The notes under the pieces were generated by a model. That model worked only from the letters and a program-made list of their open reading frames with translations, had not been told where the DNA came from and made no database searches. The position numbers were made by a program, and so were the translations under genes. A stretch of 57,206 nucleotides of DNA, filler included, from Dugesia japonica (Eukaryota): the NCBI GenBank assembly GCA_001938525.1. It is 5 parts of 5 records of this genome, joined end to end, with 100 filler letters (N's around TTAATTAATTAA, not from the genome) between each part and the next. Parts side by side here need not be neighbours in the genome. Positions count along the whole stretch, not along the records: positions 1 to 11,659 come from MQRL01607266.1; positions 11,760 to 25,197 come from MQRL01612775.1; positions 25,298 to 36,167 come from MQRL01647499.1; positions 36,268 to 46,839 come from MQRL01647903.1; 1 more part is not named here. One strand, given 5' to 3'. Shown here piece by piece: positions 6,291 through 44,599 of the stretch. Each line of letters begins with the position of its first letter. Position 1 is the stretch's first letter.

Positions 6291-6410
6291 ATTCATCAGT
6301 TCTTATCAATTGATTTAATTGTATAAACTGTTATTTGAATTAATTTATAAATGCTCGATATTAACATGTTACTAACTTAATTATGAGAAATTATTATTAC
6401 TTGTATCTAG

Positions 6411-7088: not shown

Positions 7089-8530
7089 TTAAGTTAGCAT
7101 AATCACCAACTTTTTTCTGTTGACAATGTCAGTTCCAGCAATGATGATTAAATGAATGAAATAGCTATCAGCACCCCATAATGCATCTTGATTTTGTAGA
7201 GTTGTTTTTCTACTGTAATGACAATCAAAAGGATAAGAAGTTCTGTTTACTCTCCAACTAGCGTTAGCTGAAATCCTGCAAACGGATTCTCCTACAATCT
7301 CCTTCACTGCCACATGTCAGTAAAACCTACAATTTACTATAAATCCACCGTGAAGTAGCGTTACAAGATGAACATCAAATTACTAGTAACAACTAACGTG
7401 GAGTTTGTCATGGAATTTTCATCGATACTTTACTCTCCTGTCCAACACCAACCATTTTTCGTGAAATGGATTTATTAATATTGATTTGAATCCAATATGT
7501 CGTTGCCACTTCATATTGACATAAGGTTGTAATGACTAAAACTGTCTGGATATAATCTTCAATTATATCACTAATATAACTTTTATTAGTTTTGTTCATA
7601 CCAACAAGCTGACTAAGGATAATTGTGGAGCTATTAATTTTGCCCATGACATTATTAACGATGTCCTTGTTATCAGTAGTATTATGAGTATTAAAATTGT
7701 TTTCTTTTGTATCATTATTATTATTATTATAGTTATTATAATCGTTACTGTTATCAATATTGTCATATTTATTACGAATATTACTGATATTATTTTGCAA
7801 ACATTAACACCATTACTATTATGATTGTTATACCTATTATAATAATACGTTAATATTCTCATCATCACTAACCTGATCATCCTAATTGTCACGGATATTA
7901 TTCTGTTATTATCATCCTTATTACCATCATCATTATAATTGTTATTAACAAGAACTATCAAATTATTATGAAACGATTATGAGCATTCGTATGATTATTA
8001 TTATTAATACTATGTTCAGTATTACTGCTAATATTAACAATTTTATTATTAGAATTAGGAATATTAAGTTTATTATTATCATTAGTAGTAATGTTAATAA
8101 CATTAGTAATATCACATTTAGGATTAGCATCAATATCAGCATTTTTATTATTGTTATTGATAATATTCGTTTTATTGTTGTTATTACTGTTATTATTAGG
8201 AATGTCATTAATATTATCAGTAACATGGTTACCAGAATAAGGATCATTATTACCTCCACGGGCGTCACCATCGATCTGGTTAAATCAACACTATCAGTCC
8301 CGTTATTACGAACGCCATCAGCCGGTTACCAATTTAAGACTCATTGTTGTAGCATTGATTTGGCTATGTCTTGGTGCTTGTCGCCCATATTATTATCATC
8401 GTTATGCCTTTACGACGCGGTGTTTTTTAGCATACAGGTTATGACTCACAATACTATCAATATTACTGTTTTCACTATTAAAAAAAATCTGAGTGCCAGT
8501 ATTATCACCACCATTACCACCTCAAGGTGT
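7089..8530 (-). pseudogene. Frameshifted Asn/Asp-rich long ORF followed by a non-repetitive domain
   Basis: The minus-strand N/D/T-rich reading (GGNNDPYSGNHVTDNINDIPNNSNNN...) persists across several frameshifts into the track ORFs 7408-7800 and 7089-7313. Confidence 0.4.
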
Positions 8531-8697
8531 TAAGTCGATTCTACGATAACAGAATCATGAGCTTTATATCTATGACCGTTATCGTTAATAAACATGTTTT
8601 TACTAATACTCTGAATACCATGTACGATTAACGTTCAGTTAACGCTAATGATGCGTTTTTACGCACGAATTTTCGTTTATAAAACTTTCGAGGATTT

Positions 8698-8931
8698 ATG
8701 AGTTATGAGATAACCTTTAGATTCAGCTGGAATACTCGTGGTAATATGTACAATATCCTAAAAGATGTGCTGAATTTCATTCGACGAGATCGGAAACGAG
8801 CACGCCGAAAACAGTTAATCGGCCACCTCCTCTTTCCGACTATTATTCCCTCCCCCGACGAATTAGACTTGCAATGTTTTCTTGAGTTGTTTCCCTTCGA
8901 ATATCAAGTTGATTTGGATGAGAATCCATAA
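8698..8931 (+). CDS. 77-aa small protein with a basic NLS-like stretch (RRDRKRARRK) and an acidic C-terminus
   Basis: Intact GC-richer ORF; AATAAA at 8957. Confidence 0.4.
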   Translation: MSYEITFRFSWNTRGNMYNILKDVLNFIRRDRKRARRKQLIGHLLFPTIIPSPDELDLQCFLELFPFEYQVDLDENP

Positions 8932-9032
8932 GCTTCATTTAGATTATTTGGTGTTCAATAAAACTTCTTTTCTGATTTCTTCTCAATTAACTCTTTAATT
9001 TTATTACTATAGCTAGTTATTATTAATTTCAG

Positions 9033-9404
9033 TTTATGATGGAGTAAAAATGGGAAATATTATTGGACCGGTCAACAGGCCGAACCATTTTTAAAAGATA
9101 TAAGAACCTTCACAACCGAGATGCGGGTGTCTACGCAGACCGTTCCAACATGCCCATAGAGAAAGCGGAAGAAGAAAGGCAGTGGGACACCGATGAGCGC
9201 CAGGCTTATTATGCTTGGAATTGCCCTGATCGTATTCGTGCAGTTTACCATGCAGTTAAAACCACGCAGTCAGGCGTAAATAGTGAGCCGCGAATTATCC
9301 GGGTATGGCATGAAGTCTGTGGTAGCTATTACCACCAAACAACTGCCCCATTTTTCCAGACTAAATGCATTTGTGCAAAACAATCTGTGGAACATCCGAA
9401 ATGA
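9033..9404 (+). CDS. Small cassette exon (~120 aa, Trp/Cys/His-containing), unknown function
   Basis: TATTAATTTCAG acceptor at 9032; GC-rich ORF; one stop near its start. Confidence 0.35.
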
Positions 9405-9670
9405 GAAAAACAGCGGTAGTTCTGAGAATACTGTTACCCCGTCCGTTAATGACAATTGATTGTAATGGTTGTTCTTCCCCGACTACTTTCTTTTATTTGA
9501 TGTGAATGGAGTTAAAATATTTTTTTAACTTTCCAGTGTTAATTAAGTTAACTGAGTTGTTTGTGACACTTCGTCTTTAGGCATTTGAAAAAGAGTCATT
9601 AAGGAGGTGTTATATATTATTTAACTTATTAAATAAAGGTCATATTCAGTTATATTTTCTTTTTTATTAG

Positions 9671-10029
9671 TGCATTCCTCTTTAAATCGCTCTACGGCAC
9701 CGACTAAAACGGTAAGAGAAAGCAGTGATGATATCTCTATGACGTGGGATGTTTGCAAATTAGCTAAGCGTCGATGGGAGGCTGACACCACTGCTGCAGA
9801 AAGTAAAGTTAAGCGGTACAAAAATAAATGCATCGCTGTTAGAAAGCAAGCGGAGGCCTCCTATGCTCAAGTGAGACTCTGGAAAAATCAAATAGAATCC
9901 TTTGCGGAAATTATCCGGTCCCTCCATGACCGAGAGAATAAACTGGTTGAGGGCATCATGACACTGAGAAAAGTTATGCCATTGGAGCCATTAATGATGG
10001 ATAAGGGTACGCAAACCTCGCGACCGTAA
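9671..10029 (+). CDS. Phase-1 cassette exon encoding a ~119-aa coiled-coil-like protein; homolog at 43959
   Basis: TTTTTATTAG|TG acceptor; intact ORF; AATAAA at 10061; ungapped similarity to 43959-44242. Confidence 0.55.
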
Positions 10030-10192
10030 CGTTGTACATTTCTTTTGTTTTGTGTTTATAAATAAAAGTCATCTTCCATAGCAACATGATTTATTTTTTC
10101 ATCTAAATTGTTTAATTTACACTAATTAAATTTTTGTATCAGATTAAATCTGTTTGGAACCCTCTATTTATTAATTATTGATTATTTTATAG

Positions 10193-10485
10193 TGGCCAGG
10201 ATACAGTTACCCAACATTTTCCGAAGCTGCCATAGGCTTATACAAAAATTATTACTCGAAAGACACATCAAGCGTCAAAATGAACGAGCTCTTTTGAGGC
10301 ACGTCACCCAAAGAAACCGGTTGATTAAGAAACTAGACGTCATAGTAAAAAAGCAAAGCGAGTTGGCTTAACAGGCAAAACAAGTCCTTCTTCATAAGAT
10401 AGAGTTTTTACAGCAATACACTGCTGACCTATCTAACCGACTTGAACAAGAGATGTGGACTCGCTGGAACATCGAGGACGATTAA
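10193..10485 (+). pseudogene. Phase-1 cassette exon, coiled-coil-like (ARIQLPNIFRSCHRLIQKLLLERHIKRQNE...), with one premature TAA
   Basis: TTTTATAG|TG acceptor; ~97 codons with a single stop at ~10369; AATAAA at ~10564. Confidence 0.45.
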
Positions 10486-10902
10486 ACCGCTATTGGTTTC
10501 ATATCTGAGGAGCCTACCTAGTTGTTAGACCCGGGTGCTCTCGATTACTTGTAGATAATTAAAAATAAATGTTAATATTAGTGAATTCTTAATTTCTTTA
10601 ATAAATACAAAAAATGGAAAATAATGAACGCAAGCCAAAGGTACACGAGTGAGTACTCCAAATAAGCATTGAGATTCAACCACCTGTACTGAAGATCTAA
10701 TAAGGGACATTAGATAAATTCTTGAACGGGTCCCCTGAGGGCTTTTTTTTTCCCAGCCGCCATTTTTCTAACCCCAACTCAGGTGGAACCCCAACAATAG
10801 TATAAGTAATAAATTGTGGAGGTGAAAACAGAATAATCTCAAGATAGTAAGGGATATTTAGATCGTATTTTAATTTACATTGAATTTACCAAATTTAGAA
10901 AG

Positions 10903-11043
10903 TAATATTTTTCGGGCTATGAGGTGCATTTTATTTCTTACTGTTTCTGAAATTTTTTTTTAATTTGTACAAGAAATTCATGTGTTAGGCTCATTAATTC
11001 AAATTTTTGTTTTCGGTGCGCCTTAAATCCCGATAAATACTGT
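10903..11043. mobile_element. Small Tc1/pogo-type MITE remnant
   Basis: Imperfect inverted ends TATTTTTCGGGCTATGAGGTGCA and TGCGCCTTAAATCCCGATAAATA, followed by CTGTA. Confidence 0.4.
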
Positions 11044-11243
11044 ACATGAATAGAAAAATTAATAAAATCAAAATCAAAAATCAAAGTAAAATTTAAATTA
11101 ATAAATTTAAACTCAAAAATTATATAAATTAGTAATCAAAATATATTGTTAGACTTAGGTGCTAAGAACGGTAATTTTTATATCAAATAAATTAAAGATA
11201 GTAAATACTGTTATATCGAAACGTTTGCCTATATAAGTACAGA

Positions 11244-11322
11244 TGTTGGGCTGGAACACCAAAATTAGTTGAAATAATAAAGCAATAGAGAATAGTGAAA
11301 ATGTATAAAAAAGACGAAGAAT
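11244..11322 (+). mobile_element. Another TGTTGGG-family 5' end, truncated by a gap
   Basis: TGTTGGGCTGGAACAC followed by an A-rich leader. Confidence 0.4.
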
Positions 11323-11703
11323 NNNNNNNNNNNNNNNNNNNNNNNNNNNNNNNNNNNNCAAGAAAATTATTATTATTATTATTATGGTCATTATTATTAT
11401 GTAGTTATTATTATTATAATTATTCTGGATTGTTTAGAAAATATCGAAAAATGAAAATTGGGCGTAGAAGACCCAATTATGGTGTTACAAAAATAAAACA
11501 TATATGTAAAGAAAGGTTATGATAAATTAAATAATAAAAATAATATAATAATAATAATAATATAATAATTTATTAAAGGGGTCTTTGCGACCCAATTTCA
11601 TTATTATAATAACGCAGTATCGCGTTTAATATTAATTATTATATTTAATTAAGTCTGGTNNNNNNNNNNNNNNNNNNNNNNNNNNNNNNNNNNNNNNNNN
11701 NNN

Positions 11704-11715
11704 TTAATTAATTAA
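11704..11715. other. Artificial contig-join linker TTAATTAATTAA between N runs (also 25242-25253, 36212-36223, 46884-46895)
   Basis: The identical 12-mer has stops in all six frames and is flanked by ~44 Ns on each side, four times. Confidence 0.85.
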
Positions 11716-14700
11716 NNNNNNNNNNNNNNNNNNNNNNNNNNNNNNNNNNNNNNNNNNNNAAAAAGTTGTAAATATTGAAAAAAAGGTTGTATGTATATTT
11801 TAGGAAAAGTCAATAAGCTACATGATGATACAGGAACGTTGTATGCTAAAAATTTTAAACGAAAATTTAAAAACGGTCATTTGACCGCGCATGGTAGGTT
11901 TAGTGTTAAACAATTGATTCTAGAACATTTTTATTAAAATTATTTAAAAATTAAATTATTTAAATTAAAGTAAAATAATTTGAATTAAAATAGATAAAGT
12001 ATTTGTTTTTTCTATATATCTTTTTATGTATAAAGTTTGTTGATTTTTAACCGTTTCATTCGAACTCACCGTAAACTTTCCAGTCGAATAGTATTAATGT
12101 CTATAAATTTTGAGTTACTTTTGATATTTTCGAAAAATGTCAACAAATCCGGGAGGACGGCTGTACATATTCGTTAGGAAGCATTTTTCCCGAGAAAAAT
12201 ATTTTAACTTTGCAGTCACTTTTTCCTCCCGAGAAAAATAATACCAAATTTGAATAGATAGCTGTTATCTGTACACAGAAGTCTGAGCACTAAACTCTGA
12301 ATTTTCAGATTTTTTCACCACAAAACTTCATTTATTTATTCAAGTATTAAACTTGACGAATTTAGGTTAACATATTTAGAATCAGCGAAAGATTTTCTAT
12401 CGAATAGACAGTTTCGTGACCTATTTTGTGTAGAAATTATTTTCTCGTAAACATCCTGTGCAAAATACTGAGAAAATCAAAAATGATCGTCGTAAAATTT
12501 TGAGTCAATATATATTAAAATAACTATATGTTGTAAAAATGGAAGAAATTATTTTTAAAATTTTTGATGCTCCGGATTCCATAAATAATTGATTAAAAAA
12601 ATTTAAAATTCAATATTATTTAAACAACATGAACAGTTTGCCCAATTCTTATAAAAAATTATCATAAAAAATTTTCCCCACCATAAAAGTCTGAAAAAAT
12701 ATTGCTGCTTAAAAAGCCTAAAAAATATTACCGTTTAAAAAGCCTAAAAAAATTTTCCCAACTAAATACACAGGTAAATATCACCCCAAGTTATATAATA
12801 ATCTCGCGACGAAATTAATTAGATTATGTAATGCACACAAATGTGTGCCGCCGACTATTTACATTAGAAAAATACAAAAACTCTTATGTAATAATCCAAT
12901 GACATCATCTGGGTGGGGCTTGCTAAAAGTGTGCGTGGTGTGGAGTGCCACTATTCATTCAGTAAAAATCATATTTCGCACGTATTGGAAATACTATTTA
13001 AGAAATGGTAAATAAGCACAAATTTTAGTGAGAGTTCTGATACATTGCAGTTACGATCTTTAGAGAACAAAAGTTATAAAATCTTAAGACAGACCTTTAC
13101 CCAAAAAGGGAATCAAATTTAATTTAAATTTAGAATTGATATTTTGTAGAACAAACGAAATTAATTGTTGAAAACCCGAAACATTTTTTATAAATCATTG
13201 AAGCAGATGAAGAGTCAAGTGAACTTTTTGGTAACGGTGAGAGTATTTTGATTAAATGACAAAGCTCATTTAAGGTAGAATTATTCTCACTGCAGATTAT
13301 TGAATAACTAAAAATATTGAAATTGAAAGTTTCAGTCGGAAAGTTATCATTTATTTAAAAGCCAAAATTTTATAATTTTGCTTAATTATGATTTTAATAA
13401 AATTACAAATTTGATTAATTTGTAATTAATCACAAAAAATTAGCTGAAGAACACAAAATTACATATTACTAATTGAAATAAAAATTTATAGAGAGAGCAT
13501 TTGAGAAATTTTAAAACAGTTGCTTAATAAATAAAATGTGAAATGTATATTTAATTAGACAAATTATTTGACTGAAAATTTTTTCAAGAGTTTCATATAT
13601 TTTACATTATAGAATACGGAGTTATTTTATTTATGAATATTATTCAAATATTTTCAATAACTTCTTTAAGAATTCGCACCAATTTGAATAAAACTCGATA
13701 AAGCTCTTCGTATATTGTTATAAATATTTCATTTGATTAAAATCTAATTATTAAAATTTTTCGAATGAATGAATTTAGCTAACATTATTGGTTTCCAGCT
13801 AAAACAATTAAAAATTTATCACATTTTAAAAAAATTATAAATAAAAACTTTGTTTAAATATTCACTAATAAATTTGAAAATAATTTGAAATTGTCATGAC
13901 TGCTGAAATTTCAAATATACATATTATTGAATTGGCAAACGAAGTTATATCATTATTAATAATTTATATCATTATGTTCTTTTTATATTTAGTTTATAAC
14001 AATATATCCTGATAAAGGTGAACAGGATTTTTTCAACTTTCTTTTTGATAATCAGTCACAAATGTTTAATAAGAAAAAGTTTCTTCACCTTAAAGCAGCA
14101 AGACATGGTTCTTTATTAACGAAATTATAATTTAGCATTAAAATTATTTTCAGCTTTTGAATATGTTAAGAATCAGAAGCAATTGAATGTCAATCAATGC
14201 GAGTCGGAAATTTTTAATGATAAAGTTTATTCNGAACAAGTATAAAGATTTAATATTTTTTTAAATTAATAATCTTTTCAATATTATTAATAGTTTTTAT
14301 TATTTATTAATGATATTTTTGCGATTGGAAACCAAAAATGTTAACTAAATTCATTCTTTTCAAAATAATTTTTAATCATAAATTTTAAATATTTAATTAT
14401 AACGTTTCTTAATTATGTAAAAAGCAATTCAAGTCAATTTGAGAGAAAGAACTACTTGTATAATTTTGTATTAAATTTTATTTATGCATCATTATACTTT
14501 TACAAAAGAAACGATAAATATTTACTATTGATGTCGCATGCAAATTAGGTCTGTTAAAAGGGTTGCTATCAATCACCCGCTTTTTAGTCACCTCATTTTT
14601 GTTTTATTCGTTTATTTACTCAGGACATGATCAAGTGATCTTATTTTACTCGACATCAGTGCCTTCCGCCATCTCTCTTTCCTCCTCTTACAACTTTGGT

Positions 14701-14764
14701 TTTTTCACAAAACTCCCGCTTTATTTGGTACATCAATCACTTCAGTAAGTTGCCTAATCAGGTT

Positions 14765-17700
14765 TCTGAGTGGTTTTGAAGCGAGTTGAAATTTTGTGCT
14801 TTGGCTGGGAATTATTTTTTTTAAAAAATCTCTTTTTTGATAAATTGTTGTTCACAAATTAATCAAGAAATTAAGTTTTGGCACGAAAATTATGTGTAGT
14901 TAAAGATTTATTCAAGTATTTTTTATATAAAAATATTTATTTAGTATAAAAATTTGTAAAAGTAAATAGTAATTAAAATTTCGATAACTGTGCAAATAGT
15001 AAAAAAGCAGAAGAAGAGATCATCATGGGAAAATTAGAGAAAGTAGAAGACATAAAAGAAACGTTATCTTTAGGTGAAAAGATAGAAAGAAGAGAGCCTA
15101 TTAACGTAGTAAAGAGTTACGCTGGTGTAACACGTGGAGAACGTTTCGGAGAAAGGAGACAAAATATTTTTAGAGTTACAAAAAGATGAGAACCACAGTG
15201 TTGGACATGCCAGAGTTATGGGCATACAAAAAGAGTGTCCAAAAAATGATAATGTGGACTTGTCACAAAAAAGGGCATTTAAGTATAAATTGCCAGACAA
15301 GAAACCACCAAGATATTTTGGGTGTGGTAAGATTGGTCATATCAGAAGGATGTGCACAGAAATTGTATGCGGTAGATGTAAAAGACCAGATCACAGAGCA
15401 GAAGAATGTTATTCGAACATTAGTAAACCTAGACTAGAAGAGAGAAGATACAATTCTAAAAGCGGACAACAAACAAAAGATTGGAGTCGGACAAAACCAA
15501 TTCATACCATTTGATAAGAATTTGATGATGATAATGAAGAGAGATTTTCTATGAGCATAATTGAAAATGAAGATCCAAGAAGAGAATACCCAAAAGGCAG
15601 GACTCCATCAGTAGAGGATTGGTCGGAGCCATTCATTAAACCAGTTAACGTTTGAATATCCTCAAGAGACCGAAAAATAGGATGATACAAATTCCTAAAC
15701 AGAAAGTTTCAATGATGCGGAAGTTAACAAAGCAGAAGTGGTAGGAATAATTGAAGAGAAACAAAATGCAGAAATTTCGTATGATAAAATGTAAGGGAGA
15801 CCTAGCATTTCAGTGATGATCAAGGGTGAACAGTTTGATTGTTTGTTAGAAACAGGAGCAAGAATAAATGTGATGAGCATGAAAGGATTTGATAAACTCG
15901 GAGAAACAATGTTATAGAAAAGCGAGGAACGATTGCATATCGGAAATAACAGCTCATTGGAAACGATTGGAAAGATACGTGTCGAAGTTGTAGTTTCAGA
16001 GGTGTGCAATGAAGTAAGATTTACAATAGTAGAGAAATTAATACCAGATCTAATTGGTGGAGTGGAATTTGGAAGACAAATATAGACGGGTGAACAATTG
16101 AGAAATGCAATGGATATTCTAGAAATAAATAAAGATCATAGATTGACTGCGATTATTCAGAATAATGAATATGTATTTATGGCGGATAAATGGGACATTG
16201 AATGTAGACACTTAACGAAGTATCGAATAATCACTAAAGGAAGTCCAATCAACATAAAATCGTATCGCCAACCAATGAATCTAGAGGAATAGATTAAAGA
16301 AGCGATCAAAAATCTATATGATAATTGTTTCATCCGGAAGTGTAATTCGCAATGGAATATGCCATTAATCTGTGTTTTGAAAAAGGAAAAAAAAGATATA
16401 CGATTATGCTTAGAATTTAGACAGGTCAATACAATAACAGAAAGACAAGCTTTTCCTATGCCAAATATGGATGAAATGCTAGATGCTTTGGAAGGTACGC
16501 AGTATTTTAGCTCAATAGACTTGGGAAATGCATACTACCAAGTGGAACTCAGTGAAGATTCTCAAGAAAAGACGTCTTTTTCGACCAAACAAGGACAAAT
16601 AAAAGGAGCGATGGTTTATCTAGATGATATGCTCATATTTACTGAAACAAAGGAGCAACACTATGAAATAATCAATAAAGTATTAACAGAAATTAAGAAG
16701 GCTAGTCTTAGAGTTAATCCGGAGAAATGTCCATTCATGCGAAAGGAGATCAAATTTTTGAGACACGTTATCAGTAAAGAAGGTGTAAAAACAGATCCAA
16801 CTAAAATAGAAGCAATTAAGAACTTTGGTAAACCAAACTGCGGTAAGAAAATGAGAAGCTTTTTGGGAATTTGCAATTACTATCTCAAGTTTATTAAAGA
16901 TTATTCGAAAAAAGCTAGATTGCTGTAACAACTGTGTAGTGGGCTAAGTAACAAGATGAGCGAATGAATTAGAATGAATTAGAAGAAGTTTTTAATGGAA
17001 TGAAAGAAGCACTAATGATGTCTCCAATACTAGGTTTTCCAGATATAAATGGAGGATTTATTTTGGACACGGATGCAAGTTTCGATACGATTGGGGCATT
17101 ACTATCTCAAAAGGACAACAATGGACAAGAAAGTGTAATTTCCTATAGGTCACACGCAATGACGAGTCATGAGAAAGGATATTGTACTACACGGAAAGAA
17201 TTGCTCGCAATTTTCTACTTTTGTATTCATTCCAAACGTTACTTATATAGAAAGAGATTTATCCTGAGAACAGACAATAAAGCCATCACTTTTATGCTGA
17301 ATACCAAGAAGCCGATTACATCACAGTTTGAAACCTGGATTAATTATTTGAGAAGTTTAGATATAAATTTGAAATATAGAAAAGTATCGCTTCATACAAA
17401 TGAAGATATATTGTCAAGAAGTAAATGCGATACATGNGCACAATGTCTAATGTCACATGAAGATCCCAAAAGTGGAAAATTTAAAACAAGGATGTTAAAT
17501 ACAGTAGATAGACAAGAAAAACAAAACGAGTTTTGTGAGAATGATGAAGTAACATAGATACCTGATGAAAAAGTAGAAGTTATAATGAAGATACAACATC
17601 TTTTGTGTCATGCTGGAGCAGAAAAGGTTGCAGTGTATATGAAGCATAAATATAACGCGAAACATTTGTGGAGCAATGTACAAGAGGTTGTCCGAAGCTG

Positions 17701-18714
17701 TATAACATGCCAGAAAGCTAAAGTGTTGACAACAAAAACGAAGGAAGAAACCAAAAGGACACAGCCAGCCGAAATGTTTGAGTTATTATTTATAGATGCG
17801 TGTAGATCACTGCCTGAGACAAGAGTTCGGAAAAAGTATGTTCTCGGTATAATAGACCCATGCAATAAGTATGTAGCCTTGATAGCAATGACAATACAAG
17901 AAAATACCATACGGAAAGCAATATTGGAGAAGTGGATATTAAAATTCGGGTGTACGAGAGAAATTCGAGTTGATTGTGGAAGAGGTTTTGAGTCTAAATC
18001 ATTGAAAGATTTTGCAGGTTAACATGGCATTATCCTCAGGTTTTCGAGTCCAAATCATCATAACACAAACGGACAAATTGAGATGCAGTTTAGAACTTTG
18101 CGGGATGTGGTTAATGCAACGCTTAAAGAAAGGAAAACCTCAGATTGGGCAGATATATTGCCAGAGATAGAATTTACCTTAAATGCTATTAAACAGAAAA
18201 CTATCGAGAAAAGCCCTGCTAAAATCGTATTTGGAAAGAGAATAAGCAGAGAAAAATGGTATGAAACCAATACTCAAAGAGTGCACAAAGAACAAGAAGA
18301 AAAAATAATAACCAAAAGACAATTCGGAATCGGTGATGAGGTCTTAGTGGAAGCTGAAACAATAACCAAAATCGTTATGAAGAACCCTTTAAGATCGAGA
18401 GAAAGATTCATGACAGACGTTACATTCTTGAAGATACAAACGGAAAAAGTCTTGAAAGAAACTTAGAGAAGATCAAAAAATTTCTTAAAAGGGGGATGTG
18501 AGTGGTTTTGAAAGGAGTTGAAATATTTTTGCTTTGGTTTGGAATTATTTTTTTAAAAAAATCTCTTATTTGATAAATTGTAAATCACAAATTAATCAAG
18601 AAATTAAATTAAGTTTTGGCACGAAAATTATGTGTAGTTAAAGATTAATTCAAATATTTTTTATATTTATTTAGTTTAAAAATTTTAAAGTAAAAATTAA
18701 ATATTTTAGTAGCA
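14765..18714 (+). mobile_element. Degenerate Ty3/gypsy LTR retrotransposon (gag CCHC x2, PR, RT, RNase H, IN) with paired LTRs
   Basis: LTR copies at ~14765-14980 and ~18497-18710; PPT AAAAGGGGGA before TGTGAG. Motifs: GCGKIGHIRRMC, CGRCKRPDHRAEEC, LLETGA, IDLGNAYYQ, YLDD, DTDASF, HHNTNGQIE. Many stops and an RT deletion. Confidence 0.92.
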
Positions 18715-20573
18715 AATGATATTTTATTTTATGAAGATTATTATTGATATTATTACTATTATACGTTCATATTCACTTTATTATTATATATTATAATTTT
18801 ATTATTATATTAATTTTTATTACTATCAAATGGACCTTTACCCACGTGTCGTTTCTCTAGGTAATTGAGAAACTAAAATGAGTGGATATGTTGCAATCAT
18901 GAATAATAAAATACTAAATAATTATTAAAATAGCTACATACCTGGCAGGCCCTAAACAAAGGCTAAATAATACATATCAGTAATTAGTAGTTAAATTATG
19001 TTAATAGTTTAAAGTTGTATTTTAGTGAATATAATTTATGAAACCGTGAAATCTATGAATGAATATTGATTATCCCGAGTGATTGTGTAAATTATAAATT
19101 TTTTGTAATAACAAAAATATTTATTTGAATTTGAAAAGCGACAAAAAATTCATATAATTTTATTTAATGATATGGACGATAGATGAAAATAGATCTGTAA
19201 AGTAAAATGCACAGATCATTTCAAATTGTGAGAAGCCATTCAATAAATGATCCATAGCTCAATAGATATGATGAAAACTTCAACTGATTAAATAATAATC
19301 TAAACACATTAGCAAAATTTATCAAATTTTGAAATTAAAGTAAATAAGAGTTTCTGACATTTATATTTGAAAATAGAATCAATTTAAAATTTTACGGAGT
19401 AGATCCCGAACCCCTCATTTGTTTTCGTTTAGAGAAAGTTGACGCGCGGCCAATTGGTGATCAGTATGGCAAAATCATTTTTATTGGTAGATTTGCGAAC
19501 ACAGTTTTACCTTAAAATTTTTTGTATTAGTCAATGTTTCATTGGTAGAGTCATGAGTGCAAGAAATTTTGGATTGATTATAATTTGATAAAACATTTTA
19601 TTGGATTTTTCTCTTTGTGAATTTGATGTTTGGTGTGTATGATTAGTATATATAAACAAGTGTAATTTTTCAAAAATCCGCCAAGTTGGTCGAAAATTTA
19701 TTTTTAAAAAGATTGGTGTATTTTGTTCAATTACAACTTTGTGGATTTTCGAGTTAGTATTATTGTGGACAAAGATATTTAAAGTTGAGTAAACGATTAT
19801 TTATGTATATTTCTGTATACGCATCTAAATCTAACTTGTGGANNNNNNNNNNNNNNNNNNNNNNNNNNNNNNNNNNNNNNNNNNNNNNNNNNNNNNNNNN
19901 NNNNNNNNNNNNNNNNNNNNNNNNNNNNNNNNNNNNNNNNNNNNNNNNNNNNNNNNNNNNNNNNNNNNNNNNNNNNNNNNNNNNNNNNNNNNNNNNNNNN
20001 NNNNNNNNNNNNNNNNNNNNNNNNNNNNNNNNNNNNNNNNNNNNNNNNNNNNNNNNNNNNNNNNNNNNNNNNNNNNNNNNNNNNNNNNNNNNNNNNNNNN
20101 NNNNNNNNNNNNNNNNNNNNNNNNNNNNNNNNNNNNNNNNNNNNNNNNNNNNNNNNNNNNNNNNNNNNNNNNACTTATAGGATCATTAATATCAAAACTC
20201 GATTCCATCGCAAAATTTGTTCACAAACAAAACTATAACATCATTATTTGTTTATTCAAACAAATTAAAACCGGAAATTAATTTTCCAAATTTTAAAACC
20301 AAAATATTATTTTAGTTTAGTTTTAGTTTTAGTTTCTAATAATCTACAATAAATTGTGTATAAAAAATATTTGAATTAATCTTTAACTATACACAATTTT
20401 TTTACCAAAACTTTAATTTAATTTACTTTAATTTCTTTATTTATTTGTGACTTTCAATTTTTAAATAAATGATTTTTAAAAAAAATAATTTCAAATCAAA
20501 GTACAAAAATTTCAACTCGCTTTTCAATTCATACCAACAATTATTATTATTAGTATTAGTATTTTTATTATTA

Positions 20574-20631
<58 letters not shown>

Positions 20632-20681
20632 NNNNNNNNNNNNNNNNNNNNNNNNNNNNNNNNNNNNNNNNNNNNNNNNNN

Positions 20682-20739
<58 letters not shown>

Positions 20740-21702
20740 ATGATTTATTGTGTGGTTTTAAACAAAATAAAGTCTTTTTTATCTTGATTTTTTTAGCTTG
20801 AAACAGTAATTTTTAATGCTTTTGTAGTGGGGACACATTCAAGATTTCAAAAATAAATACAGTCATTTTCCGATTAAGTAAGTACAAAAATTATTGCGCA
20901 TCTTGGATTATTACGCTTATAAAATGGCAAAGAATATGATCAATATTTTATTCAAAGTCGAAGTATAGAATTATTTTCAAAAACTAAAAAAACAAATTTT
21001 GATCGAAGTTTTCATTTTAAATGAATGTTATTATTAAATATTCTTTACAAACATGTCATCAATTGTCAATTTTGGCTTAATTTCTTTCTATTTTTCGCTT
21101 TGCTTTTTCTACTAATGAAATTTCTATTAATTTCTGTTGGATGTTTTCAAACGAACTTAGAAAATCGTTATAATCAGAACAAGTTGCATTTTAAACGACT
21201 TAACAACTGATCTTCTATATTCACAAAAGTATTGCACAACTGAAAAAAATTAGCAAATTTAAAACAGTAATAATTTTTTGTTTTACTGTTGTTTTCTCAA
21301 TTAGAATCATCAGATAGATGGTTTTTACTCTATACTTCAATATTTTCCAATACATCATCCACATTTTTCATATGTTCACATATTCATCATTTCAAATTCT
21401 ATTGCATCCGTCACTCGCTTGCAATTTATAATAATCCGGTGCCATATAAAGGTTGAAAAATTTTGACTTACTGTAAGACTTATTAACTTTTCGTTAATCA
21501 CAAAATTATTTAAATAAAAATTATTTCAACTCTCTGAATATGATAAACGATTAAAGTATTATCAATGAACATAAAGTTTATTGAGAACAGGTTAAGTTTT
21601 TATCAAAAATTTATGATATTTAGCTTCTTTTTATTCAACAGTATTCATTAAATCTGTTAATCTTTAAATTTTATAAAATAAATAGTTTTTATTTCTGATT
21701 AA

Positions 21703-21930
21703 CCCATTTCAACACAAAACCAGTGATTTACCGGCCAATGTCATTTTAGCATTGAGCCACTCAGTATGCGATTCGCCGATTTGTCTTTGAGTGACATGAA
21801 AATTGATTGACAATAACTTTATTCATGAAAATAACGTTAACAAATATATTTAATTATTGATTTTATAATAAAATATTGTAATAAAGTATTGTATTAACAA
21901 ATTATTTCTTTATATTTGTGTTGCAATGAG
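21703..21930. mobile_element. piggyBac-type MITE (228 bp)
   Basis: TTAA on both sides; TIRs CCCATTTCAACACAAA and TTTGTGTTGCAATGAG match at 14/16. Confidence 0.7.
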
Positions 21931-21983
21931 TTAATAAAATTAAACAAATTTTCTACTAATTAATTGAAAATAATAAATATCAG

Positions 21984-24900
21984 GATGAAAAAGACAACGA
22001 GATTAGAAAATTGGTAAAAGGCTTGGCTGAAAGTTTAGAGAATTACTCGCCGAAAGCTAAACGGCAGAAAATGACATCATCATTCCAAGATAAAGATTTT
22101 ACAATTTATTCCCTAGAGGAAATTATCGATTGTAAAAATATAATTCCATTTAACCAGTGCCTGATTGTATTAATTTTATTATTATGAAGTAATTTATAAA
22201 CATGTTATAATGATAGAATGAAATGGAAACAATAATTTATTCTAAATCAAAACTCGCTAAACCAGTTCTACTTTATGGTGCAAGGAAATGTGGGAAAACT
22301 ACTTTCATAAGATTCATCGCTCAAGTATTTGTCCAATGATTTTCATAGATAAAATTAATCATAACCACAATTCTATTTTCACAGAAATATGGTTATCAAT
22401 ATGTTTATGTGTCGAACTATCACATTGAAAATATGGTCATAGATAAGTTTGAGAAAGCTATTGAAAATATATTGGAGAGGTTTGAGTGAAATATTTATTT
22501 TTCCTTTTTAATTTTTATGTTTATCTAGGGAAATGATAAAATTCTTTTACATTTCGAATTTCATATTTATTCTGCAAAAATTGTAGATAATTTCAAATAC
22601 CAACCAATGAAAGGTAAATCGATATTTGTCAGTTAATTCTTCATTTCATATTTTCACAAAGCACCATCAAGATTCCTCATGATTTATGAAACAATCGATC
22701 CTGGACAATTGAATCAACTGACATGTTTTCCAATTTATTTTCCAAATGGTAATAAAGATGATCGACAAATGTAAGTAAATAAAACTAATAAAATTCAATA
22801 ATTTACACAAATGTTAATTAAATTACATATTAATTAAATTAAATATTAATTAAATTAAATATTAATTAAATTAAATATTAATTAAATTAAATATTAATTA
22901 AATTAAATATTTGGGTTTCAACGAGACCGGGTTCACAATATATATATTATATGTATAAATATTATAAATTTATATTATTATGTAAAGATAAACGGATTCA
23001 GGATTCTGATTCAGTTCGCTTTTCATTATTATACCTTATTTTTATTTTCATAATTTTCTCTTCCTTCATAACACTGACGACTGGTAGGACAGCTTAGTAA
23101 TCAATATAAACACAATTTGTTTTGGCAATCCTTATCCTATCCCTTCTATCCTACATTTCCAATATTGTATCATCTGTCTCCGTGGGCATTCCCATTTAAT
23201 ATGAACCTCTTTACTTCATTCCCAGCCTTCTTTACTTTTACTTTATCCAATCAGCTGGGTAATTTCACTACTGTAAATTTCACGATTATTTCCTTTTACC
23301 ACCTTCGAATAGCTTCGTACAGCGTTAATCGGCTCCTTCTCACTATCTACTTTATCCAACAGTCACAAAGTCTCCTTATTTCCTTTTATAATTTTTACTT
23401 TTCGCAACAGAATTTCTTCCTCTACTCATTTATTTTCTGCACACTGTATTTACATCTCTATGTTAACATTCTCTTGTGTAAATGCCCCATTTGCAAATAA
23501 ATAACAAACAGACAAGAAAACATTACAGAATTAATAGGGAATGACTTATAAAAAGAAGAAACAAATTGTAGCTAACAATTCACGCAAAACAGATAAAGTA
23601 CAACCAAACTAAAATTTACAATTATAAGTATAAGACAAAATCAATTTTAGTTTCTATTTATTGATGTACAGTTTTTAGAAATTATTTTTAGCAATCTTCC
23701 AATTCAGTAAAGAACAGGGGGTTTCCAAACTTTGCCTCCCATTAAAAATTAATCTAATCTTAGTGCCTCTCTTCCAGTATTTTATAAAATAATGCATGTT
23801 TTTAAATTGTGAAGAATGTATTACAAGTGCAAATAAATAAATAAGTAAAAGGATTCATATGACTATCCGTGCTGGTAAATATTTTAAATTATATATACAT
23901 GTGTACGTTATATTAAAACATTTAATGTTATTTGATGGAATTTATATAGATATATTGAAAAGTTGAAAAAAATGTACCCAGCATTGATCAATAAAAAAGG
24001 CCCAATTCTTTTTGCATGACAACGCCCGTCCACACATAGCAAAGCAAACCATGGATAAACTGAAGAGCCTAAATTATGAAATTCTGAGACACCCACCGTA
24101 CTCACCTGATCTCTCGCCAACTGATTTCCATTTATTCTAACATTTACAAAATTATTTGAATGGGAAAAGATTTGAGAACGAAGGGGTGTTAAAAAATGAA
24201 TTCGAACAGTTCCTTGCCTCCAGGTCTGCCGAATTTTATCGCATATAAATGGAAAATCTACTAACTCGTTGACATAAGTGTGTAAACGCTAATGGTTTTT
24301 ATTTTAATTAATAAATCTTTTGTTTCGGCTTTCTTATGATTTTTTAAAATTAAAGTTCAAAAACGTACAAAACTTTCTGAACAACCTAATAGATTATTTA
24401 ATTTATAAGGAGTTATAAAAATTACATTTCTATTAAAAATCTCGCTTAGAACTCCGCGTCTCCTGAGTGACGAAAAAATCTAATTTTTTACAACAATGTA
24501 TTAGATGAACAAATTTTCATACGAAAAACTTTTATACGAAACGTCTAGGTACCGTTACTTGTTAATAGCATCATTAGTATCTTCGTATTTTCTCGTTAGA
24601 TTTTCACCATTCTAAATTTTATCACTTGATGAATTTCATTATTTTCATTTGCTCTATTATTATCTTTGTTTAGTATGCTCTTATTATTTTATCAGTAAAA
24701 TAATTAATCGGTCTCGATAATTGATTGAATCGATTGAAAAGTTCTAGGTGCTATATATATATATATATATGAATCAAACGTATAATTTTTCAATATATGT
24801 TTGGAACACGGCACTACAAGATTTCAATATATTCGATATTAATTGTTAACATTTTTCATTTTTATTAATCCGGTTTAATTACAGTTATTTGGAACATTTT

Positions 24901-25173
24901 CTGTCTGGTTACGAATTAGAGAGTGAATTAACTTTTGAAATAATGGCGAAATCAACGCCCAGGTATCAAATAGGAGAAATAGAAGCCTTGTGTGAAATGC
25001 TCGTGAATAAAGCTAAACGAAATGAATCATTAAGGGGATTAATAACAGAATGCGCATTTATGAGTCTTATAAAGAGTGATAAGATAAAACATGACTTCAT
25101 TAATACAGACGACGTAAATTGGAGTGACATCGGGGGTCACGATGAAGCGAAGATCAAATTGATGAATATTATG
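21984..25173 (+). CDS. Partial type II AAA+ ATPase (CDC48/AFG2-SPATA5/PEX6 group). Exons 21984-22166, 22217-22324, 22385-22479, 22529-22613, 22662-22770, 24885-25173
   Basis: GT-AG introns; Walker A VLLYGARKCGKT; D1 lid (AKSTPRYQIGEIEALC); D2 entry motif VNWSDIGGHDEAKIKL. One 1-nt phase conflict at ~22528; truncated at the gap/linker. Confidence 0.75.
22826..22910. repeat. 16-bp AT minisatellite (ATTAATTAAATTAAAT)n
   Basis: About five tandem units visible. Confidence 0.8.
23920..24390 (+). mobile_element. Mariner 3' fragment in the AAA gene intron
   Basis: LLHDNARPH...HPPYSPDLSPTDFHLF; terminal AACTTTCTGAACAACCTAATA; stops present. Confidence 0.88.
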
Positions 25174-25297
25174 GTAAATATATAAACTTTCCTTTCTNNN
25201 NNNNNNNNNNNNNNNNNNNNNNNNNNNNNNNNNNNNNNNNNTTAATTAATTAANNNNNNNNNNNNNNNNNNNNNNNNNNNNNNNNNNNNNNNNNNNN

Positions 25298-25332
<35 letters not shown>

Positions 25333-25355
25333 CTCTAATATAGAAATATTACATA

Positions 25356-25498
25356 AATATTTTGAAAAAACAAATTCTTTATTTAAAATTTATTTTCTAC
25401 TGCAAAGATCAAAATGATGAATAGAAAGAACATCGTTTTGATCTTTGCAGTGGAAAATAAATTTTAAATAAAGAATTTGTTTTTTTTTCAAATATTCA
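25356..25498. repeat. Fold-back palindrome of the same sequence family as the 51988-52374 arms; a decayed Penelope-like RT scrap follows (EISFLDTLI, ~25660)
   Basis: TGCAAAGATCAAAATGATG and CATCGTTTTGATCTTTGCA arms, ~65 bp each. Confidence 0.7.
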
Positions 25499-26349
25499 TC
25501 AATGAATCTAATCATCAATTCTTTGCACATAACTTTCGCTCGATTTCATTGATCTAAAAAATTTCTGCATGAAATTTTAAAATTCCAAGTCAANAGTCAT
25601 CAATAATTTTAATTTAAAATTAAAACATGGAATTAAATTTAGAGAAATCAACTAACTTAGAAATTTCTTTTCTGGATACTTTAATACAAAATAACTATTG
25701 TGATCTTAATATGAATTCATTTCAAATTAGACATATTTTACTATGGAGTAGTAACATTACATAATGAAAAAATTTGTTAAAATTATTAGGGTATAGAATT
25801 AGAGCTGATAGATAATCCAGAAATGAAGAAATTTAGTTGGTTTCTTTCAAGTTGTTAAAAAGTAAATAAATAAAAGTAACGACGATCAAAAAAATTAGTA
25901 TCAAAATATCTTTGTTTTAATGTAAAAGTTTATAAACTCAAAACAAATCAAACAAATTTATATTTCCATTCATTAACGCAAAATGAGAAAAATAATCAGT
26001 AAATAAAAACTCAAGAACAATCTCATAATAATATGTAAAACACAAGCCTTTACTCTTGAGCCATATTTTTTTAGGTTCATTAAATTTTAATAATATTCAT
26101 TTTACTTGTATACTTGGAAATATTTTTCATTATTTCCTTTCTACATAGTTTTCATAAAAATTATTGTGTCTTTTATGTTTTTATCTAGAGTAATTAGATA
26201 TTCCAATTCATGAATCAAATATTCGATACTCGACTACTATTCGTAAGTTATGTTTTCCTTAAAACCGAGAACCCTACACGCTGGACACCCTGCTGAGATC
26301 TGACAAATAAAACTCATCAGTAAATATCATTTATATATTTATCGTTATA

Positions 26350-39989: not shown

Positions 39990-42900
39990 TGTTCTTTATA
40001 TCAGGGAATTCTAAAATAGGAGCGTCTATCAGTGCTTGTTTCATTTCTCCGAAAATCTTCTCATATCCATCTGACCATATTAGTTTGGTGCTGTTTCTTC
40101 AACTTAATTATTCAACAGCTCTTGATTTCTTTGAATATTTCTTGATAAATATCCGATAATAATTGCATAATCCAAGGAAGCTTCTCATGCTCTTTACGCA
40201 TTTAAGTATTACAAAATTCTTGATAGTTTTGATTTTTATTGGATCTGTTTGAATTCCTTCTTTATCTATTATGTGAACAAGAAATTTCACTCTTTGGCGT
40301 AATAGGTGGCATTTTCCTGGATTCATTGGCAGCCCTGCTTTTTGAATCCGTTCTAATACCTGACCCAGAGTTTAATAATGTTCTTTTAGTCCTTCTGGGA
40401 ATATCACTATGCCATCCATATATATCATTGCTCCATCTAGACCGTCCAATACATTCGTCATTAGTTCTTTGAATGTTCCTGGGGCTGCTGCTATGCCAAT
40501 TGGCATTCTTATGAATGCTGTTTTATCTTGTGACTCTTTTCTAAAGGTACCTGGTAATACGCGTTTCCTAAGTCTATGGTACTTAAATATTTTTCTGCAT
40601 ACAAATTGTCTAACATTTCTTCTACGTTTAGCATCAGGAAGGCCTGTCGTCCCGTAACTGTATTTAGTATCTTGAAGTCCAAGCAAAGTCTCACATCATT
40701 TCTTTCTTTCTTCCAGAAGCATATCAGTGGTGTGTTCCACTGCGAATTACATTTTTTTATAATATTAGCGTCTGCAAAATTTTTTATGGCCATATCTATT
40801 TTTTCTTCTAGATTTATGAGTTGTCTCCAAGGTTTCGTATTTATTAAATTATCCTTTGTCACTATCTTGTGTTCCGCGCGTGTCGTGATCCAACATCCTA
40901 GTTATATGTCATGAATAGTCCTCGATGTTGTATTATTACCTTTTCCAGTTTTTCGTCACGTTTTGTCATCAAAATTCTCAAATCTCTCTGTTCTCTTTCA
41001 GCATCGTCAATTTACGGCCAAATCTTGTATCTATGTTGCAGATCCACTGATTATACTAATAATCCTTTGTTTCTTTCATTAAACGGTAACCAAACTGGCG
41101 TTGCATTTCTATTCCTCCAATAAGATTCGGACTCATTTCTTCCACTACGGTAAATTGTACTGTTTTCTTATTGTTTCCTATCTCCACTTCTACACATATC
41201 TTTCCCACAATGTTTATTATTTGCACATTTTAACACGTCATCAGTTTCTATCAGCTCCACATTTGCCAGACTCCTAAAGATATTGAGGCTCATCACGTTT
41301 ATTTTTGCACCTGTATACAAATGGCAGTTCATATATCTTCCTTGAATTCTAATTACCACACTGAACTTACCTTGCATTATGTCATAATTTATTTGTACTT
41401 GTTCATTCTCTTCTAATACCATTAGTTTGTTATCACCATTTCTCGTTTCTTTCATTATATTGATGTCTGTATTATACATTGTAAGTGTGTTAAAAAAGCA
41501 AGTTAAATTTTTTGTGTAATTGGTGATNATATTTTTAAAATCTTTTGTTTAAAAGAAAGATTTTAAGTTTTGATGAAGAATTTAAATAACAAAAATTTAT
41601 TTTAAATGATAAATTAAAACTTTTCAGTAAACAGAAATTTATTTTTATTTTAAATAAATAAATAAAATTGTTTGAAATAAATTAAATTAAAATTATGTTA
41701 AATAAATTAAGTTTCAATTTAAAAAATTCAAAAATGGTGATTGGATAAAAAAATAAAATCTTAAATAAATAAATAAAATGTTTGAAATAAATTAAATTCA
41801 TTTTAAATAAATTAAATCCAATTTAAAGAAATTCAAAAATGATGATTGGATAATAAAGTTAAATTTTTAGTAAATAAAATTTTCAAGGTGAAAGAAATTT
41901 CCTTAAATTTTAAATAAATAAATAAAATGTTTGAAATAAATTAAATTAAATTTAAAATAAATAAATTAAAGTTTTAGATTTTGAAAAATGATCACCAATG
42001 AAAACACGGGATTTTAATTTGTTTGTTTAACAAATATTGTTGGATATAGTTTTGATTTTCAATAAAGTGTTGTAATAAATTCGAATTTTGAAATTCCAAA
42101 CTCAACTAACATACATATCTTTGAAATCTTTCTATAAAAACGCATAAACCTTTCTGTCTACTCTTTCCTCTTTAGTTTCATCTTTTATACTATTAATAAA
42201 ACTACTTTTACTATACATATGTATTTCGCGATCTGGATTGTTTTTCAGTTCATGGCTCCAATCATCTCGACTTTGGATGGAGCTTGTCTGTTTGGGATCT
42301 CTTCTATATAGCTGTTTATCTCCTCGTCGTAACAATAAATATTATCTCCTCTCTTTATATATTCCTCATCCTCTTCTACCATTGCGTTTACATATTTATT
42401 GCCGTCTCTTTTCGTGAATCCATTATTAACTGATGTCTTCCAACTTGGTTTTGAGAATCTGTTATTATCGCCATATCTTCTGTTAGATTCCTCTCTTCGG
42501 TTTTATTGTGCTGCTTTGTTTCTTTGTTCGTCATTCTGCTGTCTTTTATCATAAATCCACACACCTTTTTTCTCCAAATTAGTATAGCATTGTTCTGTAT
42601 TTTTTTCTGTATTACATTTTTTCCACATCTTGAACATCTAATTTTGTCACAATTTCTTCTTATATGATTCTCTGATTCGCATGCATAACATTATGTTCTT
42701 TTCCGGATAATTTCTGCTGATAAGACCTATCTTCTGACATGACATACATGTAATTTCTTTTTTAGCTTCACTTTGAGTTTATTTGCAATATCTCATTTTA
42801 CTGCATTATTGTAAATCTCCACTGTATTTATATTATCTGTTTCTTGCAGGTCCTCCTTTAGTTCAATATTTGCTTTTATTTTTTCAAATATCTCTTCCAA

Positions 42901-43901
42901 ATTACCTAGTTTGACTCTTTTAATCTTTATTTGTTACCTTTAATCGCGGCAACTATTGAATATTAATTCTTTTGTCATATCTTCTTTGTCTAGTTTATGT
43001 GCAAATATTTTATCGACCCGTGTTAAAATCTTTTTCTTGTACACATAAACGTGTACATCCGTTCTCTTGTATTTTAAAGCTTCCTCCAAGCCCGGTATTA
43101 GAGTAGTCTTTTTGTGAAACGCTTTTCTCAGTCGGTCCTCAAAATCTAATAATTCATCCTGGCATTCGTATGCTTCTATTAATTCTCGATCAATTAAGCA
43201 ATCACCACCAAGAGGTTTTTATCATTTTTTTACACCAATACTTTCGAATTATTTGGTGCAACCATTTATAAACTGTTCAATATCGTCACCATGTCGGTAA
43301 ATTCCTGGGTGTAGTACTTCTCGAATGAGGTCCATTGAAGCGTTTGTCACCACGTTAATTACAGAAAAAATTTCTGAAAAATCCAGTAAATTCAATAAAT
43401 CTTTTATTTATAACACAAAATTTCAAAGTGGCGGATAGAAGTCGCAAATGTGCGGGCAGATCTAGAAACCGCCCAGTTACAACTAGTGATCAAAGACACC
43501 AACTACTTGCTAAGCAATTATCAGAGAAAATGCGACCAGGAGATAGCCGGGAAGGAGACCTCGGTGATACCTGATTCTTCTACAGAAAGTTCCTTGAAAA
43601 TCACCAATGTGCTAACATTGGTGGAATCGGCAAATGAAGAGATGGAGGTGGAGGAATCGCTTAAAATCCGATAATTGTTGGAATTGAGAGAGATCGATCC
43701 AATAAGATTTGATGAATAAAATATATGTGTATAAGAAAGAGAGAAATTGTTTTGTTATTGGATGTCGGTAATGTGATATGGATGTCACCAGTTTATAAGA
43801 TTTGATTTATGGTTATAGTAAAGATCCTTAGAGGCGGCGTGTATTAATGATTTATTAAATAGGATATTAAGACTGTAAAATTTCTCTTATTTAAAATAAC
43901 A
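39990..43901 (-). mobile_element. 3'-truncated degenerate Ty3/gypsy (5' LTR ~43901-43353, gag from ATG 43335, PR, RT, start of RNase H)
   Basis: TGTTAT start; PBS-like TGGTGAC; CHLYTGA, IDLGNAYYQ, AAAPGTF, IYMDG, RSFLGLCNYY. Same lineage as the 14765 element. Confidence 0.85.
41480..42111. mobile_element. 632-bp solo LTR nested in the gypsy gag-pol junction
   Basis: TGTAAG...CTAACA ends; perfect 5-bp TSD TACAT; internal AT-rich tandem repeats. Confidence 0.75.
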
Positions 43902-43958
43902 TAGATTATTTTTAATTGTGGCTAATGTTTTAAAACTTTATTATTGAATTCATTTCAG

Positions 43959-44242
43959 TGTCTGTAGAAAGGAAAAGATGGGCCGAGGAACGACGTGAAT
44001 TGCGAAACGAGATATTGCGACTGAAGGGACAAATCATGAAGGCCACCGGAAAGTTTAATCAGATAAAATAAAAGGAGTTGTCCCTTCAGCACGCAAATCG
44101 CCTCATGGCTAAAGTGATCAAAACCTATGCCGATCGGGAGAGTTCGATGTTCCTGTCATTACGAACCCTATGGCTGAATTATCGAGAATCTCCGCCATCA
44201 ACAGAAGTCATGGATCCAACCGTGGATTTAGACGCCGATTGA
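43959..44242 (+). pseudogene. Phase-1 cassette exon, homolog of the 9671-10029 coiled-coil protein, with one premature TAA
   Basis: CATTTCAG|TG acceptor; RKRWAEERRELRNEILRLKGQ...MAKVIKTYADRESSMFLSLRTL; AATAAA at 44263. Confidence 0.55.
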
Positions 44243-44385
44243 GAGAGACTTAATGGTATATAAATAAATGTAACTAATTGTGGATGCAGTATTCTTATTT
44301 TGTTTTGTCACTAAATGTTATTTGGTAAAGAAAAAAAATTATAATAATAAGACATTTTTATACTGAGCATAAAGAGATTTATTGC

Positions 44386-44599
44386 TGTTGGGTTCATTAA
44401 TTCAGTAAATAAGACGCGATACCGCAAAGTCGCGCTGAACCCGTGGAAAGAGAGGGGTACGTCACAGAGGTGACGCAAACGCTTGTGGTTTTTAGGTTGC
44501 CCCTAGATTATGTGACAATTTCTTAAAAGCGAGTGTGATATCAGTCGGAGATGGTTTAAAGTAAGAGAATTTAAATATAAAACTCCTAAAAACCCAACA
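44386..44599 (+). repeat. GC-richer self-complementary terminal segment ending in the family 3' motif CCTAAAAACCCAACA
   Basis: TGTTGGGTT...AACCCAACA; internal complementary pairs GGGTTCA/TGAACCC, CGTCAC/GTGACG and GGTTTTTAGG/CCTAAAAACC. Confidence 0.5.

Follow-up and report, generated by a model that had tools for sequence, protein, structure and literature searches.

Putative spliced coiled-coil mini-genes near the ends of a high-copy element in Dugesia japonica

Do small genes travel near the ends of a repeated element in the genome of Dugesia japonica and, if so, are two of them, found in separate copies, descendants of one gene? The question is posed by a stretch of 57,206 nucleotides (hereafter the window: five parts of assembly GCA_001938525.1 joined end to end, filler included), in which an original prediction, made from the sequence alone, had paired two putative exons, here called mini-gene A (9671–10029, plus strand) and mini-gene B (43959–44242, plus), as one novel coiled-coil family. 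Its DNA, eukaryotic and AT-rich (GC 0.13–0.40 per kb), is broken by scaffold gaps and also carries spliced host genes, ATT microsatellites and decayed copies of mariner and of Gypsy elements whose long terminal repeats (LTRs) are short. The answer to which we incline, at slightly better than even confidence, takes A and B for decayed members of what is likely one old accessory-gene family near the ends of a high-copy element. On this view those ends are probably multi-kb LTRs belonging to a Gypsy-associated retroelement, and the genes would be spliced to specify proteins of ~100–120 residues, predicted to be single coiled-coil helices. The copies in the window are themselves decaying remnants.

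Both mini-genes begin, as had been proposed, at a T-rich AG/TG (the slash marking the putative splice acceptor), and in both the long frame is in phase 1. That of A has 118 open codons, a run free of stops in only 13 of 20000 shuffles, and its GC content is 0.45 in the midst of AT-rich spacers at 0.21–0.26. B has 93 codons, and an in-frame TAA at 44069–44071, overlooked in the original prediction, makes it a broken copy, its frame nevertheless being more open than chance would have it (at most one stop in 439 of 20000 shuffles). An AATAAA follows each, 32 nt past the stop of A (10061–10066, plus) and 21 nt past that of B (44263–44268, plus), against a background of 10% per 40-nt window, and the CCCAACA said to lie downstream is found at 10790 and 44593, 761 and 351 nt past the respective stops. 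From this layout we infer that A and B are exons, A being a putative 3′-terminal one; no intact upstream coding exon for either is readable from the listed GT donors. AlphaFold, given A alone, predicts one long helix, residues 18–101, with a mean predicted local distance difference test score (pLDDT) of 86 and a predicted template-modelling score (pTM) of 0.47.

What part of A has been retained by its relatives? Three RNA runs and one DNA run were mapped against 1403–11322 at 85% likeness, ~6–25% of each run being covered, and in the DNA run single-copy contig pieces, the reference level, have a depth of ~7–15. The bin with exon A (9678–10008) has a contig depth of 25,103, and the bins around it 147–243. 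The core of A is thus more than 100-fold deeper than flanking bins, by a signal that comes from many different contigs and is within the range of the terminal bins considered below (17,984, 3,896 and 6,711). Summed depth is not a copy number, so for this core only ‘many diverged copies’ are claimed. The contigs have loose ends clustered at 9895 (39 contigs), 9913 (48) and 9947 (117) with low agreement among them, which means that many different relatives have a 53-nt stretch, 9895–9947 (plus), in common and diverge outside it. Apart from the termini, no other part of the element is shared so widely among genomic copies as this stretch, residues 75–92 including an Asp-Arg-Glu (DRE).

RNA run X20 has 22 reads there with a loose end at 9947. 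Weighing on the other side, depth in the exon-A bin is zero in runs X19 and X23, reads at least 99% alike over the whole 9.9-kb stretch number only 0, 2 and 1 in the three RNA runs, and no splice joint is listed in the mapped RNA of 1403–11322; nor is any RNA run listed as carrying 8500–10820. The X20 reads and the near-absence of 99%-alike reads together point to a relative of A in one poly(A) library, with no sign of expression of this copy in the shares read.

For B, conservation is evident from a natural relative. When a profile of A and B was searched against 1.84 billion representative proteins the sole match was P0001 (E 5e-19), a singleton protein on a 554-bp ENA contig; it is B-type, and no A-type protein was matched. 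P0001 is open throughout, is identical to B at 64 of 90 positions (71%) and has the same last residues, with identity peaking at 13–14 of 15 over the segment aligned to the core of A. The contention that element-encoded genes had been under past protein-level selection is therefore sustained for each family taken separately, by P0001 in the one case and the core of A in the other, but for a single shared family it is marginal by pairwise statistics.

Are A and B, then, one family? The gapless alignment originally described is there on one diagonal, with 11 identities in the 65 columns from RW to TL and, further on, P+71; the shared positions counted from RW are R+13, K+15, A+43, I+46, DRE+51–53 and TL+62–63. 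The DNA is, also as described, strongly diverged, with 35% identity on this diagonal (32, 45 and 28% at the three codon positions). A local score of 48 is reached by 21 of 10000 plain shuffles and 33 of 10000 shuffles within 10-residue windows, and tblastn gives E values of 1.3 and 7.6 for the pair. Several results count against common descent. Heptad-preserving shuffles reach the score 231 times in 10000 and 7-block shuffles 176 times, so that a shuffle test with its coiled-coil control, called for at the outset, ends as marginal; a separate test gave 64 of 5000 plain and 261 of 5000 heptad shuffles, and the ungapped score of A against B plus P0001 gave 32 of 10000 and 472 of 10000. With hhalign, A against the B type has a probability of 1.3% (E 0.041, 22 columns), and BLASTP of A against P0001 yields no match. 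By itself the A–B pair is marginal, suggestive at best, and it weakens further given that it was chosen among ~ten mini-ORFs (open reading frames).

One may accordingly envisage two unrelated element-borne coiled-coil families, with the RW/DRE/TL pattern a product of heptad periodicity and of that selection. Its attractions are the heptad-preserving nulls (p ~0.02–0.05), the failed BLASTP comparison, a middle stretch of 25 residues that scores negative between A and B, and the different types of the ends at 10796 and 44599. We nevertheless consider it unlikely, for the conservation peaks, measured independently per family, land on the matched segment: the core of A, the B/P0001 identity peak, the best stretch of A against B/P0001 and the hhalign match all fall there. 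The spacing is exact and ungapped, RW to DRE being 52 in A, B and P0001 alike, the hydrophobic heptad positions of all three are in one register, the context around A and B is the same, and among 2423 six-frame windows of the whole stretch the best non-self match to A is B. These lines of support are partly independent of each other. Because three conservation peaks coincide at one segment, we regard homology of A and B as probable, though the marginal shuffles leave the sameness originally asserted short of proof. Further members are P0001 on the B side and, on the A side, the many contigs with the core in common; no member bridging the two types was found.

The carrier has ends of the form TGTTGGG and CCCAACA, left and right having only 7–8 bp of inverted sequence in common; such TG…CA ends with short inverted termini are as for a Ty3/gypsy LTR, whether solo or at an outer end. 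Element A terminates at 10790–10796 (plus), where CCCAACA is followed by ATAG and multi-copy sequence inside gives way to a single-copy junction contig outside (bin depth 6,711 versus 585; one contig over 10774–11113 at depth 7.25). The right terminus of element B is at 44593–44599 (plus), CCCAACA then ATAC, and that of a third element, C, is at 5424–5430 (plus), of the CCTAAAACCCCAACA type, like 44599, with a bin depth of 3,896; these two, 5430 and 44599, are right-type ends. Directly after the 5430 end, 5431–5700 is multi-copy sequence with a short AT-rich frame, and element C may be inserted into another repeat. Left-type ends, read inward, are at 1539 (minus), 11244 (plus), 35272 (plus) and, in degenerate form, 3362 (plus); A-rich tracts then follow, with CCAAT clusters after those at 1539 and 35272. 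The first, at the edge of a further copy (1–1539, minus), has nine CCAAT boxes, TATA-like and initiator-like sites and a bin depth of 17,984; at 35272–36167 (plus), TGTTGGGG comes after ATAC and leads to an A-rich tract and four CCAAT boxes. Here and past the genes, the promoter and poly(A) signs (CCAAT/TATA, AATAAA) are motifs only. Part of the nine CCAAT boxes stems from a 463-bp tandem duplication (202–599 and 656–1062) of a CCAAT/TATA promoter-like block. Just outside the 1539 end, 1734–2064 has a contig depth of 29,968 and is another high-copy repeat, with many contigs skipping ~2020–2480.

For the identity of these ends as LTRs there are counter-indications. Beside no TGTTGGG/CCCAACA end in the window is there a primer-binding site (PBS), polypurine tract (PPT), gag or pol; the lack of PBS and PPT fits solo or outer LTR ends without proving them. 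No left end of element A was identified. The end at 35272 is a possible partner of that at 44599, across scaffold gaps and nested elements, judging from a 4-bp flank match (ATAC/ATAC) that is weak given that ATA follows three of the four CCCAACA ends and that the gaps intervene; for the 3362/5430 pair the flanks show no matching duplication. Moreover, the 10796 end read inward resembles the left-type 1539 end, AAAAATGGCG included, from which it follows that the orientation of element A may be reversed.

Pursued further, that likeness would have an LTR on the minus strand begin, at its 5′ end, with CCCAACA, the cassettes then being antisense U3 genes with an antisense promoter, HBZ-like or like the additional ORFs (aORFs) of plants. 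In plant LTR elements, as described in PMC7264820, antisense aORFs have promoters of their own, and one of them has an SMC (coiled-coil) domain. We think this opposite geometry improbable: the 5430 and 44599 ends are without the A-rich/CCAAT module typical after left-type ends, and the LTR tail of the Gypsy element next to B, on the minus strand, weakly matches a 200-bp short-LTR family instead. That element (40000–43430, minus), separate and decayed, has a gag zinc knuckle, remains of reverse transcriptase (RT) and a PBS-like TGG after its LTR tail. With a PBS-like site and short-LTR tail of its own it is disfavoured as carrier of the mini-genes, the resemblance of the tail to the 200-bp family being a weak alignment (scores 27 and 22).

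Returning to the LTR reading, a further competitor is that the carriers are integrase-type DNA elements, Ginger-like, or else what is left of an element like a small DNA virus, with spliced genes in tandem. As far as the accessible part of PMC6839031 goes, Ginger1 DNA transposons have TG…CA termini and a 4-bp target-site duplication (TSD), which also suit the window, where the ends at 35272 and 44599 have the weak 4-bp flank match. No gag-pol is linked to mini-genes in the window, and each of the tandem genes has a poly(A) signal to itself. Such a carrier is quite improbable all the same, for the inverted ends are of 7–8 bp rather than long terminal inverted repeats (TIRs), the element ORFs that were scanned yielded no frame for a transposase, an integrase or a capsid, and IMG/VR has no relatives. 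Membership of Ginger1 itself, with its long TIRs and integrase-like transposase, was rejected on the ends and the element ORFs scanned.

The inventory first drawn up had missed further cassette genes and a second shared family, and the feature is richer than was reported: the element ends have modular cassettes in which two gene families are highly conserved. GC-rich segments (0.39–0.46) alternate with AT-rich spacers: 9035–9458, A and 10193–10485 in element A; 43427–43674 and B in element B. The first of these (plus; GC 0.45) is a decayed upstream gene with broken frames, a T-rich acceptor and no family match; among its frames are an MG start, a run of basic residues and a hydrophobic segment, so a membrane-anchored accessory protein is possible. 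At 10193–10485 (plus) is a third AG/TG phase-1 mini-gene, charged and helical-looking, whose 96 codons are interrupted by a single in-frame stop and followed by AATAAA at +79; three genes thus have such starts, the chance level being TG after 10 of 111 acceptor-like plus-strand sites. Mini-gene D (43427–43674, plus) has 81 open codons and AATAAA at +41, its 5′ side adjoining the truncated short LTR of the minus-strand Gypsy. Inside element A, 7400–8530 is ATT-rich and degenerate, with long low-complexity frames on both strands, two of which had no Pfam match.

The second family is represented by mini-genes E (5147–5353, plus) and F (6411–6599, plus), both with AG/ATG starts. E is open and is ~70 nt ahead of the CCCCAACA end of element C at 5430; F, upstream of A, has a PxLWDSLG motif and stops in frame. 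They align ungapped over 42 residues with a score of 79, reached in none of 10000 shuffles, a more significant match than the A–B pair, and identity of 70, 70 and 42.5% at the three codon positions makes their divergence third-position-biased. There is a weak third copy at 6143 (plus). No homologue was found in Pfam or in the protein collection (word-indexed search with E; such searches were restricted to lengths 0.55–1.75 times the query). With this family in the elements of both A and C, three elements in 57 kb combine shared modules differently.

Could the mini-genes be no more than captured fragments of host coiled-coil genes, BRE1-like for instance, passively amplified and without protein function? 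The Pfam family BRE1 (PF08647) matches residues 34–100 of A with E 4.8e-05, and all the window copies seen have stops or are silent. The score of 23.8 is, however, below the gathering cutoff of 27.9 and P0001 has no BRE1 match, so A is not assigned to that family. Moreover, conservation is concentrated on the coding core, a relative is intact at 71%, and the second family has its third-position bias. We hold passive capture to be very unlikely.

Other searches bear on the claim that the family is novel and unassignable, which stands in that no family match emerged, but holds for the libraries searched only. The word-indexed search gave no candidates for A and only itself for P0001. Pfam scans gave only sub-cutoff coiled-coil matches; IMG/VR and JGI metagenome scans confirmed 0 of 9, 0 of 28, 0 of 182 and 0 of 489 candidates; Foldseek against viral models gave no match at E<=0.001; ESM Atlas matches were to unnamed or generic coiled-coil clusters; and Rfam and tRNA searches gave none. 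Matches in PDB sequences to CENP-U and RecA fusion chains were weak and were rejected. No published description of mini-genes of the A/B type was found in a literature coverage that stopped short of the primary Burro papers, Repbase, Grohme 2018, Lee 2026 and some supplements of PMC11410931 and PMC8532177, and because Repbase, those Burro papers and some supplements fall outside it the elements themselves may well be catalogued already.

GLT-type entries of Repbase are LTR-associated elements. One element, GLT2 of Schmidtea mediterranea, is PIWI-silenced and transcribed, in a study whose transposon annotation is, in its available text, Repbase-based (Li et al. 2021, PMC8532177). Compared by eye only, the reverse strand of the 400-nt GLT2 probe given there has a GT donor, an ~100-nt AT-rich intron, a T-rich AG/TG and a long phase-1 charged helical frame, but within those 400 nt no clear RW…DRE motif; it seems the nearest architecture to the A/B cassettes. 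Burro/GYPSM1, a giant planarian Ty3/gypsy element with thousands of copies, a total of >30 kb and an internal region of up to 25 kb, is similar in its long LTRs, accessory ORFs, Smc-like motif and AT-rich host, but its accessory domains belong to a 4,900-aa polyprotein or lie upstream of it, and small spliced terminal genes are not described in the accessible portion of PMC6431247. A Burro-type giant gag-env-pol ORF (BIR/MATH/BCL2 domains) is absent from the window. CERV, a spliced product of Cer1, is needed for genomic RNA export (PMC10309623); with ORF3 ‘CC’ of bdelloids (PMC5408684) and the plant aORFs (PMC7264820) it exemplifies element-specific accessory proteins without cellular homologue, often spliced and some coiled-coil. 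As far as the portions of these sources go, the window differs in having several short tandem genes that have an acceptor and a poly(A) signal apiece, lie 0.1–1.8 kb from a terminus and are reshuffled between subfamilies.

The remainder of the window is a mixture. Decayed short-LTR Gypsy elements at 14767–18694 (plus), 40000–43430 (minus; that beside B) and 54310–55057 (plus) are related, being 70–76% alike in pol, and LTR pieces at 20359–20527 and 38592–38653 adjoin ATT microsatellites. Mariner remains are at 29916–30521 (with a Transposase_1 match), 23908–24288, 53212–53923 and 56632–57200; an RT-like fragment of non-LTR or Penelope type is at 47152–47936, and a palindromic repeat family resembling miniature inverted-repeat transposable elements at 25356–25499 and 51988–52374. 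Host exons at 51054–51395 and 55527–56015 (minus) are FAD-synthase-like with a Pfam PAPS_reduct match. Those at ~21985–25185 (plus) we take, from motif, to be probable host AAA-ATPase exons; Pfam gave no match on the one exon scanned.

How might such cassettes work? A promoter near the left end, with its A-rich tract, CCAAT cluster and TATA, would drive a pre-mRNA, of which a short first exon would be spliced, in phase 1, to any one of several 3′-terminal exons; as each of these has a poly(A) signal to itself, several small proteins could come from a single element. For AG/ATG exons a non-coding leader would be enough, and AG/TG exons would depend on the leader for a single base, by which a start codon would be completed or else a micro-ORF continued. 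The flatworm spliced leader ends in AUG, and trans-splicing of it into AG/TG exons, which would be out of frame, was rejected on that reasoning. The helix would presumably oligomerise via the shared heptad face and offer a partner its conserved patch, A-[DE]-[IV]-I-[RK]-[ST]-x-x-D-R-E. By analogy the likeliest job, itself a tentative suggestion, would be to help the element's own RNA in the manner of Rev/CERV, or to counteract silencing.

More speculatively, and with a probability we would put as low, the multi-kb LTRs of a very high-copy invertebrate retroelement lineage could have become modular arrays of small accessory genes with alternative splicing, with one leader joined in phase 1 to any terminal exon (possibly completing a start codon across the junction), subfamilies swapping modules, and the DRE helix acting on a host silencing or RNA-export factor. 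If that is true, solo LTRs would be thousands of dispersed, self-contained protein-coding cassettes. Several exchangeable small genes at the ends, together with a coding core no less widespread than the termini, would suggest that the interaction between element and host is under strong selection. There is in any case a repeat-borne gene family, unannotated and liable to be mistaken for lineage-specific host genes.

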